In this document: positions 1-3,872 of the stretch, piece by piece
How positions within the stretch are numbered: the stretch's first letter is position 1
Layout of the letters: each line of letters opens with the position of its first letter
IMG/VR virus record: IMGVR_UViG_2526164662_000036
Reading direction: 5' to 3' (one strand)
Length of the DNA stretch: 30,682 bases
DNA from: a virus
Taxonomy: Duplodnaviria; Heunggongvirae; Uroviricota; Caudoviricetes
Translations under genes and position numbers: made by a program
Notes under the pieces: model-generated
The model's input: the letters and a program-made list of their open reading frames with translations, nothing else
What the model was told of the DNA's origin: nothing
The model's database searches: none

Positions 1-1284
1 TTACAGACTTCTGGAAGGTTGCGCAGCTCTTACAACACGCGGTTGATCTTCCGCAGCGTCTTCCAGCGCACTTAAATCACGGTCTTTCACCTCTGGCATT
101 TTCAGCGCAGAGATTAAACCAATTACTGAATATGCCATGATCATAATGGCGATCGGATACCAGGATTCCGTCATGGTGCAGAAAATACCCGCCAGGATAG
201 GACCAAAACCGGAAGCGATAAGACCACCAATTTCTTTAGAAATAGCCATCCGGGTAAAGCGGTTTTTACAGCCGAACATTTCTGCCATGGTAATGTTTTC
301 CAGAGCAAATAATCCCAGCACCGCACAGTTATGAATCACAATCAGTGCAACCATAATGGTGCTCGGGGCATAGCTTTTATCTACAATGATAGAAAGCATT
401 GGCCATGCCAGCACAATCGCGGAGGTATTCATAATAATATACGGGATCCGGCGACCAATTTTATCGGATAACCAACCAAGGAACGGAATGGTCATAAAGC
501 CGAGAATCGAACTAATCATCAATGCATCTGTTGGAATTGCTTTGTTAAACAATAACGTCTGCACTAAATAGCCTGCAAGGAAAGTCTGAATTAACCCGGA
601 GTTACCCGCCTGACCAAAACGCAGCCCTGTTGCCAGCCAGAAGGATTTGCTCTGGAACATGCTACCAGCAGGTGCAGGTTTTGCTGTGGGTTGGTTGCTG
701 TCGTTAACCTTCTCAAAGACCGGGCTTTCTTTCAGATTCATACGCAACCAGATAGCAAAGACCATCACGACAACGCTCGCCAGGAACGGTATACGCCATC
801 CCCACGCAAGCAGTTCCTCTTTACTGAGAATGAAGAACATAAAGGCCCAGATTGCCGTTGCGCTCAAGGTTCCGCAGTTAGTTCCCATAGCTACAAATGA
901 GGAGATAATTCCGCGCTTACCTTTTGGCGCATATTCCGCCAGCATCGTACCGGCACCGGAAATTTCCGCACCTGCACCCAACCCCTGAATAATACGCAGC
1001 GTCACCAGCAAGATGGGGGCAAAAACACCAATCTGTGCATAGGTCGGTAACACACCAATTAAGGTGGTACAGATCCCCATCATGGTGATGGTAATAAAGA
1101 GCACTTTTTTACGCCCTATTCTGTCGCCCATTTTGCCGAAAATAAATGCTCCGACAATACGCGCCACATAACCTGCACCGTAGGTTCCCATTGCCAAAAT
1201 TAACGCCATTGCCGTTGATGATTCAGGAAAAAATATTTCATGAAACACTAACGCTGCGCCGAGCGAATATAACTGGAAATCCAT
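1..1284 (-). CDS. ydfJ: MFS transporter (metabolite:H+ symporter family), YdfJ-like; apparently lacks the N-terminal ~25-40 residues and part of TM1
   Basis: 427-aa ORF, hydrophobic throughout, MFS motif GKMGDRIGRKK between predicted TM2 and TM3; compared with ProP/KgtP-type paralogs the ORF starts inside the conserved EWFDFxVYG segment of TM1, and an in-frame stop lies 2 codons upstream of the ATG. Confidence 0.75.
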   Translation of the reverse strand: MDFQLYSLGAALVFHEIFFPESSTAMALILAMGTYGAGYVARIVGAFIFGKMGDRIGRKKVLFITITMMGICTTLIGVLPTYAQIGVFAPILLVTLRIIQGLGAGAEISGAGTMLAEYAPKGKRGIISSFVAMGTNCGTLSATAIWAFMFFILSKEELLAWGWRIPFLASVVVMVFAIWLRMNLKESPVFEKVNDSNQPTAKPAPAGSMFQSKSFWLATGLRFGQAGNSGLIQTFLAGYLVQTLLFNKAIPTDALMISSILGFMTIPFLGWLSDKIGRRIPYIIMNTSAIVLAWPMLSIIVDKSYAPSTIMVALIVIHNCAVLGLFALENITMAEMFGCKNRFTRMAISKEIGGLIASGFGPILAGIFCTMTESWYPIAIMIMAYSVIGLISALKMPEVKDRDLSALEDAAEDQPRVVRAAQPSRSL

Positions 1285-1876
1285 AATTCACAGGTGTTTT
1301 TTCCCATCCTGTGGTTTCCTTGGCGTTTTCTAGGTTTTTTCAGATAGTTGCATTTTTTAAAAAGCATCCTAAGTTCGATCTCAGTGTCTATCTGGGGCCT
1401 ATTCCTGTCCCATATATGCCCCAAAAAACTCCCCAACAGATAAGTAGTTTTTTCATGGATTTACGCGTAAAATCAATAACGGCTGGAAATCATTCAATAC
1501 TCGCACTATCGAAAAATTTACCAGCCAACCGCAGCACGTTCTTGCATAAGGCGTGTCTGCGGTTTTTCAACTATTCAGATACATCACTCCCATCACATTC
1601 ATTCCTCCGCATCATAGGCTATCACCTTGATATTTTTCTTCTTCAGATAAAAACTGTTATCTATGTATACTTTTAAACCCAATCCGTGTAGAGTCTCTGC
1701 ATAAGATAGTTTGCAGTTGCCGCTTCAGCTTGCGCCATAAACCGCCTGATTTTTGCTGCCACCTGTTAGCATTCCTGTATACCTGAAACGACAATGTTTA
1801 TCTACGAACTTTAAGAACACCCAAGATAAAAATTGTCAACTATATCATATATAACACATTACTAATTCGAGGCTAT

Positions 1877-1990
1877 ATGAACAGCATTCTGATAATCACT
1901 TCTCTCCTTATCATATTCAGCATTTTTAGTCATGCCCTAATAAAATTAGGGATTGGCATATCCAATAACCCAGACAAAACCGATGTATAA
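1877..1990 (+). CDS. candidate small hydrophobic membrane protein (37 aa, [37 protein letters not shown])
   Basis: ATG preceded by GAGG about 5 nt upstream; one predicted TM helix followed by a short polar tail; below the 60-aa cutoff of the ORF track; no homology check possible. Confidence 0.3.
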
Positions 1991-2058
1991 GTCAACATAT
2001 CCTGAATCAGACATACAATATCGCAATGAAAATCAATAATATTTTAAGGAACATCTTC

Positions 2059-2292
2059 ATGAAATCAAAAGACACCCTAAAGTGGTTCCCTGCGCAGCTT
2101 CCTGAAGTAAGAATTATCCTAGGGGATGCTGTAGTGGAAGTAGCAAAACAGGGAAGACCTATCAATACCAGAACATTGCTTGATTACATTGAAGGAAACA
2201 TAAAGAAAAAATCATGGCTGGATAACAAAGAATTATTACAAACAGCGATATCAGTTCTTAAAGACAACCAAAATTTAAATGGTAAAATGTAA
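2059..2292 (+). CDS. ydfK: YdfK/YnaE-family small prophage protein (cold-shock-associated in K-12)
   Basis: ORF 2026..2292; the internal ATG at 2059 has an AGGA Shine-Dalgarno about 8 nt upstream, whereas the 2026 ATG has none; product MKSKDTLKWFPAQLPEVRIILGD... matches my recollection of YdfK/YnaE (77 aa). Confidence 0.55.
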   Translation: MKSKDTLKWFPAQLPEVRIILGDAVVEVAKQGRPINTRTLLDYIEGNIKKKSWLDNKELLQTAISVLKDNQNLNGKM

Positions 2293-2608
2293 TATAATAA
2301 ACTTACTTTTTTATCATTTTTCCACTTTAACAACATTTTGCTCCACTTTTCCACGACCAAACAACTTGAAATCTGGTTAAAATAACACGCAACACTATTC
2401 TTCTTCCTTGAGTCCGCCCGGAACTCGAAAAACAAACCGAGTTAAAGCCATTTTTCACAAAATCGATTTTGGGTCTCACCAAAATTACGGGGTTGCATAC
2501 GCATTCGTTTATTTTCGAACGTGTACATACAAATATGCACAAAAATAATCATAATTATTTTCTGAGATGCATTATGATATGAATACCAATTTCGTATAGA
2601 GTCTCACT

Positions 2609-3296: not shown

Positions 3297-3872
3297 CTAC
3301 GGCAGTGCTGGCCATTCAATATCCTGTGCAGTTGACGTATCAACACGGTTCAGCAACACCCGATACTTTTTCCAGGCTTCCAGCAATGAGGTTTCTTCCT
3401 CCGTTGCGATTTCCAGAGCTACAGCATCCTGAAGTGGCGCAATATGCTCACTGGCTACCTGCATCAGGCTGTTTTTTGTTTCTTCCGCCTCTCGGATCCG
3501 GAACAGTTTTTCTGCTTCTGCATCTTTCACCCAGGCTGTGCCGTTCCACTTCTGAAACTCCCCTTCCGGCGATAACCAGGTAACATTTTCCGGTAACGGA
3601 CCGAGTTCAGAAATAAATAACGCGTCCCCTGACGCTACGTCATAAACCGTTTTACCCCGATGGTCTTCAACGAGATGCCACGATGCCTTATCACTGTTGA
3701 AAACAGCCACAAAGCCAGCAGGAATATCTGGTGGTGCAATATCGGTACTGTTTGCTGGCAGACCTGTATGAGGCGGAATATATGCGTCACCTTCACCAAT
3801 AAATTCATTAGTTCCGGCCAGCAGATTATAAATTTTTATGGTCCGTGGTTGTTCACTCATTCTGAATACCAT
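3297..3872 (-). CDS. tfa: tail fibre assembly protein Tfa
   Basis: 191-aa ORF immediately downstream of stf with ATGA start/stop overlap; sequence resembles lambdoid Tfa chaperones. Confidence 0.8.

Follow-up and report, generated by a model that had tools for sequence, protein, structure and literature searches.

The closest described relatives of the gene considered here are ynaM and ynfT of Escherichia coli K-12, located in the Rac and Qin prophages, respectively. Both lie directly upstream of ynaE/ydfK and a pin invertase gene at the prophage end, and both encode the same 37-residue protein as the gene considered here. In a study based on chromosomal SPA tagging and immunoblots in K-12, this sequence appears twice among the detected small proteins, once as ynaM, between ynaE and ttcC (Rac), and once as the ydfJ/ydfK small open reading frame (sORF) at K-12 positions 1632890 to 1633003, and both copies were positive in tetracycline ribosome profiling (VanOrsdel 2018, PMC6001520). 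The ydfJ/ydfK sORF was named ynfQ in that study and is now ynfT. The level of YnaM-SPA exceeded that of most newly detected small proteins in a second study, in which YnaM had no ribosome peak at its start codon with either retapamulin or Onc112 (Weaver 2019, bioRxiv 511675). Across these two studies, the tagged proteins (YnaM-SPA and the Qin copy) were readily detected in ordinary unstressed LB cultures, and detection of YnfT was at 37°C in LB.

In published expression data, ydfK and ynaE increase in parallel with csp genes, and ynfT is up 5.7-fold alongside deaD and rhlE; cold induction of YnfT itself is not reported in the published studies covered. YnfR and the YmcF-like proteins by cspI are also very small and are encoded beside a cold-shock gene in the same prophage, Qin, where they occupy the equivalent genome region, but their sequences are unrelated to that of YnfT. 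YnfR-SPA is strongly cold-induced (VanOrsdel 2018, PMC6001520). The name and annotation of ynfT date from 2018-2019, and a 2024 y-ome paper includes it (from 1632890) among the uncharacterized genes of Qin. We found no functional study of ynfT or ynaM in the literature.

The ynfT gene of a Qin-type prophage

The window, i.e., the whole 30,682-nt stretch of viral DNA that was analyzed, carries a Qin-type lambdoid prophage with a complete tail/head module, a fuller Qin-like element than the remnant in K-12. The small gene of interest lies at the left end of this prophage, which is inserted in ydfJ, and is flanked by an N-terminally truncated ydfJ (1-1284, minus strand) on one side and by ydfK, pinQ, tfaQ, and a tail-fiber gene on the other. 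The truncated ydfJ is the Qin integration site, which the window copy adjoins just as ynfT does in K-12 Qin. The features of the locus are as follows.

1850-1855, plus strand: −10-like hexamer TATAAC, a candidate promoter element of the cassette
1869-1872, plus strand: Shine-Dalgarno sequence GAGG, with a 4-nt spacer to the ATG
1877-1990, plus strand: ynfT coding sequence, small protein of the YnaM/YnfT family; 37 codons plus TAA, with a RefSeq CDS at identical coordinates
1886-1942, plus strand: predicted single transmembrane helix, codons 4-22, from hydrophobicity
1943-1987, plus strand: conserved polar tail, codons 23-37, predicted to be cytoplasmic
1991-2058, plus strand: ynfT-ydfK spacer, 68 nt, AT-rich and unstructured (folding z-score, +0.73)
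2059-2292, plus strand: ydfK, encoding cold shock protein YdfK (PF27475, YnaE family; RefSeq annotation), the partner gene

The ORF opens with ATG at 1877-1879 on the plus strand, continues for 37 sense codons, and closes with TAA at 1988-1990. In the best-matching genome, RefSeq CDS WP_120795384.1 (ynfT, YnaM/YnfT family protein) corresponds base for base to window positions 1877-1990. A megablast search with window positions 1700-2300 matched 2,808 of 5,426 complete E. coli genomes, and the matched region is annotated there as ynfT (or ynaM), a YnaM/YnfT family protein, with ydfK, cold shock protein YdfK, after it. The protein also matches family models in three databases at full length: Pfam PF23676 (YnaM) at 96.2 bits against a cutoff of 27, covering residues 1-37 of 37; NCBIfam NF041477 (YnaM_YnfT_fam) at 63.9 bits against a cutoff of 35; and PHROG 35882 (E = 3e-20), for which PHROG gives no known function. 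It shows the features of the family throughout: its length is about 37 residues, it has a hydrophobic helix at the N-terminal end and a GIGISNNPD[KR]TD tail after it, and its gene immediately precedes ydfK/ynaE in a lambdoid prophage. We are practically certain both that the ORF is protein coding and that it represents ynfT, the copy of the YnaM/YnfT family typical of the Qin prophage. In RefSeq, the name ynfQ now denotes a YmcF-like small cold-shock gene next to cspI (L229:28213-28401) and not the gene at window positions 1877-1990, which conflicts with the earlier use of that name.

The original prediction, made from the DNA letters, had described a 37-codon ORF with an ATG start, a GAGG Shine-Dalgarno sequence, a hydrophobic helix, and a polar tail, upstream of a ydfK-like gene. 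The sequence and hydrophobicity checks place every one of these elements where it had put them, the helix remaining a predicted one, and the downstream gene is indeed ydfK. That prediction had also called the ORF unannotated and possibly overlooked, and neither description holds: the gene is already known, having a name, a RefSeq annotation at exactly these coordinates, membership in Pfam, NCBIfam, and PHROG families, a place in the y-ome literature, and experimental detection. The SPA-tag detection applies to the identical protein in a K-12 strain, which is not the strain of the window.

Ribosome profiling, which the original prediction had proposed as a check, gives a mixed result in the published data, with a positive tetracycline screen and no start-codon peak in the retapamulin or Onc112 data. 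In a K-12-like chromosome, the Rac and Qin copies share 98.9% identity across 2.56 kb and do not differ near the start codon, and so the missing initiation peak of YnaM may plausibly be explained by the loss of multimapping reads.

Two further observations concern the surrounding DNA. Positions 1443-1589, in the spacer between ydfJ and ynfT, are 83 to 91% similar to DNA at or next to DinI-like genes of many other E. coli prophages, and this segment may be what is left of a dinI-type gene like those that precede ynfT in other phages (for example, in contig L242). Farther downstream, Rfam family IS009 (RF02111) is matched over its full length at 3331-3529 on the minus strand (219 bits), inside the tail-fiber assembly gene tfaQ (3297-3872, minus strand).

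Selection on the YnfT peptide and its clades

Several further ORFs of 30 to 46 amino acids are present on both strands of the same AT-rich spacer, and the length of ynfT alone is not beyond chance; the case for YnfT therefore rests on conservation. Two anchors were used to collect loci, YdfK in one search and a degenerate DNA pattern of the YnfT tail in the other. Genomes, phages, and viral contigs contributed 228 loci in all, from which we obtained 194 complete ynfT-ydfK segments and a set of 48 different DNA alleles. The first scan of viral contigs had produced 80 loci with identical YdfK, after which diversity was sought with the Salmonella variant and the degenerate tail pattern. A tblastn search of YnfT against phages matched only the 15-residue tail, the hydrophobic part having been masked as low complexity, and returned nothing beyond the DNA search. 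The scan of genome contigs returned only Escherichia/Shigella and mislabeled metagenome-assembled genome (MAG) bins. The MAGs labeled Caldithrix, Alistipes, and Draconibacterium (L004, L006, and L009) carry a YdfK that is 99 to 100% identical to that of E. coli on short or terminal contigs, and these copies are almost certainly E. coli prophage contamination of the bins.

Of the 48 alleles, 47 retain an intact 37-codon frame, the exception being locus L012, and the numbers of variable sites at codon positions 1, 2, and 3 are 8, 4, and 18, respectively. Between the E. coli and Salmonella types, the Nei-Gojobori dN/dS ratio is 0.08 to 0.09 for ynfT and 0.08 to 0.10 for ydfK, and the values for ynfT within and between these two types span 0.04 to 0.19. 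The deficit of nonsynonymous changes relative to neutrality is pronounced in the three comparisons involving the E. coli type (binomial P, 1.6e-5 to 1.2e-7). In comparisons with the third clade, which has a 39-residue protein, synonymous sites are near saturation, and yet the protein is still 70 to 76% identical; the closer pairs of Salmonella type and clade 3 give weaker results (dN/dS, 0.24 to 0.39; P, 0.004 to 0.10). All five alternative frames carry stops in every clade. Furthermore, the Rac and Qin copies of ynfT within one genome differ at three sites, all of which are synonymous.

These patterns support strong purifying selection on the YnfT peptide and not just on the RNA. Conservation of the frame with a synonymous bias had been proposed as a check, and intact frames with a dN/dS ratio of about 0.08 were found in place of the frameshifts and stops in homologous DNA that would speak against a gene. 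The gene is therefore real, as the original prediction had suspected, which agrees with the immunoblots published for the SPA-tagged protein of K-12, whose sequence is identical. Locus L012, with a YdfK that is 68% identical, was discarded as evidence of decay, as its assembly is ridden with indels and both ynfT and ydfK are broken in it.

The distribution of substitutions along the peptide is uneven. For residues 4-22, the most hydrophobic 19-residue stretch of YnfT, the Kyte-Doolittle values average 2.52 and the Hessa scores add up to −1.8 kcal/mol, and in the alignment the substitutions between clades in this helix exchange one hydrophobic residue for another. In contrast, the 12-residue motif GIGISNNPD[KR]TD in the tail does not vary among the E. 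coli, Salmonella, and 39-residue clades. Basic residues (K/R23 and K/R34) occur only C-terminal to the helix, and the N terminus of three to five residues has either acidic residues or no charge. By the positive-inside rule, this predicts an N-out/C-in topology, in which a very short N terminus would be periplasmic and the tail would lie in the cytoplasm.

Putative signals for expression are also retained across clades. A purine-rich Shine-Dalgarno sequence (GAGG, AAGGA, or GGAG) is present at the equivalent position in the other clades despite differing flanks, and the E. coli, Salmonella, and 39-residue clades all have a −10-like hexamer (TATAAC, CATAAT, or TTTAAC) at the same distance, about 21 nt, from the start codon.

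The third clade is represented by ORFs at L240:691-810 and L242:1202-1321, which precede YdfK variants that are 72% and 67% identical. Relative to the other clades, it has an in-frame insertion of two codons and K-to-R changes in the otherwise invariant tail, and only 27 to 32 nt separate it from the ydfK homologue. In L242, a dinI gene is found upstream and an IS3-type transposase gene downstream. A more divergent 39-residue ORF, MNFPGWIAIVLMIAFAGAGIVALVKIASQVSNNNDEKEP, occurs in metagenomic contigs (L238:1805-1924 and L239:688-807), 76 nt upstream of a YdfK homologue of 60% identity. Its architecture is YnfT-like, its tail is identical at 7 of 17 positions (pairwise E = 3e-4), and it keeps the S-N-N-x-D motif; its score is under the Pfam YnaM threshold. 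This peptide is a possible, as yet unproven, distant member of the YnaM/YnfT family that has so far gone unrecognized. Overall, the family comprises at least three YnfT clades and one possible distant relative.

The ynfT-ydfK cassette

Linkage between ynfT and ydfK is tight in both directions of search. The YnfT tail motif was found upstream in all 92 of the ydfK-anchored loci with enough upstream DNA, and ydfK was found downstream in 104 of the 107 testable loci identified by the tail pattern, with a truncated ydfK in one. The DNA similarity between E. coli and Salmonella loci is confined to a segment that starts just 50 nt or so before the ynfT start codon and ends at the ydfK stop codon. 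Beyond these limits the flanks vary: the pin invertase gene follows in E. coli, tail-fiber assembly genes follow directly in Salmonella phage 118970_sal3, and the upstream neighbor may be an integrase gene, dinI, or another gene. The pair is present in active phages, among them mEp460, 2H10, Tritos, and Salmonella phage 118970_sal3. The constancy of the pair amid differing flanks therefore marks ynfT-ydfK, at the level of sequence comparison, as a discrete two-gene accessory (“moron”) cassette of lambdoid phages and prophages in Escherichia, Shigella, and Salmonella. The two genes are probably cotranscribed, since they lie close together on one strand and no terminator intervenes.

The linkage has exceptions on both sides. 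Two related viral contigs, L191 (minus strand, ~5373) and L212 (~10413), have lost ydfK by deletion and keep an intact Salmonella-type ynfT (tail ending in KTDD), directly followed by a tail-fiber assembly region. Conversely, no small hydrophobic ORF was found upstream of distant YdfK homologues (the Enterobacter/E. coli type of 62 to 64% identity and that of Limnobaculum), which indicates that YdfK does not need YnfT. Taken together, these loci do not imply an obligate YnfT-YdfK complex.

Several published observations were considered for this locus. A predicted 17.1-bit Fur-box cluster “+8 from (old) ydfK start” was reported by Chen et al. 2007, in which ynaE and ydfK are cited as Fur activated. 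In the window, this cluster maps to about 2026-2045 on the plus strand, within the ynfT-ydfK spacer, and it is not conserved in the shortened spacer of the 39-residue clade. The ydfK promoter from RpoD SELEX (Shimada 2014; TTCCCA-16-GATAAT) was rejected as a ynfT promoter, as its position, 882-909, falls within ydfJ, some 1 kb farther upstream. The ydfK “mutations” described in phage-resistant K-12 (PMC12844343) were likewise set aside as functional evidence, as they look like cross-mapping between the Rac and Qin paralogues.

Possible roles of YnfT

Small membrane proteins of the AcrZ, MgrB, MgtS, and KdpF types act by binding larger membrane proteins. YnfT resembles them in its size class, its single hydrophobic helix, its short conserved soluble tail, and its stability in growing cells; unlike them, it is phage borne and limited to (pro)phages of Escherichia, Shigella, and Salmonella rather than part of the core genome, and the sequences are unrelated. 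A helix that tolerates hydrophobic exchanges, joined to an invariant tail, is what would be expected of a membrane-anchored binding peptide of the AcrZ, MgrB, and MgtS kind. A small membrane regulator, one of the two classes raised in the original prediction, is the most plausible generic class for YnfT.

The explanation that we favor, and that we consider likely as a whole, is that ynfT encodes a translated, 37-residue, predicted single-pass inner membrane protein, is the first gene of the ynfT-ydfK cassette, and serves as a binding modulator and not as a type I toxin. The binding-modulator mechanism, taken by itself, is put forward tentatively. The cassette is situated between the tail-fiber/invertase genes and the attachment-site end and is expressed from the resident prophage in uninduced cells. 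Under this mechanism, YnfT would insert into the membrane with its short N terminus in the periplasm and its invariant tail in the cytoplasm. There it may bind and modulate a larger partner, as AcrZ, MgrB, and MgtS do. The obvious candidate partners would be the coencoded AriR-like YdfK or a host envelope protein, and the action of YnfT would probably fall within the low-temperature/RNA-stress regulon to which ydfK belongs; the published increases of ydfK and ynaE with csp genes, and of ynfT with deaD and rhlE, tie the cassette to this group.

A more specific version of the binding mechanism centers on YdfK. No solved structure was found among the sequence relatives of YdfK (PF27475). An AlphaFold2 model built from a 17-sequence alignment (pLDDT, 77.6) is a bundle of four helices, and its only convincing match in the PDB is YmgB/AriR (2OXL), with a TM score of 0.83 (normalized to the target), a root mean square deviation of 1.7 Å over 59 columns, a probability of 1.00, and an E value of 0.26. 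A weak NCBIfam YcgZ hit for YdfK (E = 0.012) agrees with this match. As a lead, then, the model suggests that YdfK may be related to the connector proteins YcgZ, YmgA, and AriR and represent a version of them carried by phages. YnfT and YdfK could accordingly be imagined as a two-part module in which the YnfT tail would recruit or regulate the AriR/YmgB-like YdfK at the inner membrane, coupling the cassette to host envelope or two-component signaling at low temperature, as YcgZ, YmgA, and AriR do for Rcs; in a variant, YnfT alone would exclude superinfecting phage at the membrane. We consider such a module doubtful.

Cold-shock mRNAs typically have long regulatory leaders, and ydfK is a cold-shock-type transcript with ynfT directly before it on the same strand and in the same orientation, separated by a short gap with no terminator. 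The ynfT stretch might thus be nothing other than a long 5′ leader of ydfK, in which the act of translation alone would matter (for example, by shielding the RNA against Rho or RNase E) and the peptide would have no function. RNAs designated “5′ UTR-ydfK” and “ttcC-ynaE” coimmunoprecipitate with Hfq (Bilusic 2014, PMC4152368), and the same RNAs are given there as being among the riboswitch-like elements proposed by Raghavan 2011. The “5′ UTR-ydfK” RNA is the ynfT message. However, it is the amino acid sequence that is constrained, as seen in the low dN/dS ratio, the conservative K-to-R exchanges, the tolerance of an in-frame indel, and the invariant 12-residue tail, whereas conservation is lowest in the spacer (47% of its columns vary), which is unstructured (z = +0.73) and ranges in length from 27 to 32 nt in the 39-residue clade through 68 nt in the window to 76 nt in L238. 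Furthermore, ynfT is intact in the two contigs that lack ydfK, and the protein accumulates stably. A variable, unstructured spacer beside a constrained peptide therefore makes a purely cis-acting role unlikely. Nor does the region bear the marks of an attenuator: no terminator and no stable or conserved RNA structure were found between ynfT and ydfK, and the peptide is not free to vary. Translation of ynfT may still have an added regulatory effect on ydfK besides the function of the peptide. A perfect 7-bp hairpin at 1935-1951 on the plus strand (CCCTAAT-AAA-ATTAGGG; codons 20-25) is not preserved in the allele of the Salmonella type; we rejected a function for it at the RNA level, and it is probably incidental.

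The other class raised in the original prediction was that of the type I toxins; as such a toxin, YnfT would be a membrane-depolarizing peptide silenced by a cis-encoded antisense RNA. Like Hok, Ldr, Ibs, TisB, ShoB, DinQ, and PepG1, YnfT is small, has a single hydrophobic helix, and is found in prophages, where such toxins are frequent. Its hydrophobicity is in the range of TisB, Ibs, DinQ, and Hok, but in the same comparison hydrophobicity does not separate toxins from benign small membrane proteins. The best match to a toxin family, NCBIfam PepG1, is faint (E = 0.055; 13.1 bits against a cutoff of 70), and PADLOC gave no hit for YnfT. The tail of YnfT is net neutral or acidic rather than basic, and the ready detection of tagged YnaM/YnfT in unstressed LB cells is atypical of type I toxins.

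On the RNA side of the toxin proposal, the single promoter-like site on the minus strand (2068 to 2041, 9 of 12 matches) could in principle drive an antisense transcript, but promoter-like sites occur at chance level (7 found versus 4.5 ± 2.3 expected), and this one overlaps the ribosome-binding site and first codons of ydfK, with a spacing that is lost between clades where the spacer is 27 to 32 nt. No terminator-like sites were found around ynfT on either strand, and the Rfam search placed no antitoxin or small RNA family at ynfT, the only hit in the window being IS009 inside tfaQ. The antisense strand folds no better than shuffled sequences (z = +0.76), and the sense RNA from 1850 to 2075 is not unusually structured or stable (z = −1.18), unlike mRNAs of the hok/ldr type. 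The antisense small RNA that the original prediction had suggested looking for thus left no signal in the DNA, although a transcript may exist without one. Overall, YnfT differs from type I toxins in family assignment, RNA features, detectability, and tail charge, and we regard a toxin role as very unlikely. Finally, a chance ORF of AT-rich prophage spacer DNA with no coding function, an idea to which the abundance of 30- to 46-codon ORFs on both strands of the spacer and the lack of an initiation peak with retapamulin or Onc112 (Weaver 2019, bioRxiv 511675) might lend some color, is effectively refuted already by the conservation and selection tests, the curated family models, and the published immunoblot detection.

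The binding-modulator reading is our tentatively preferred one for a y-ome gene that, as ynfT/ynaM, is present in about half of E. coli genomes. To its earlier annotation and detection, the present analysis adds selection at the level of the peptide, a cassette with ydfK in active lambdoid phages, a set of clades, and an AriR/YmgB-like model of YdfK, which together narrow the route to function.
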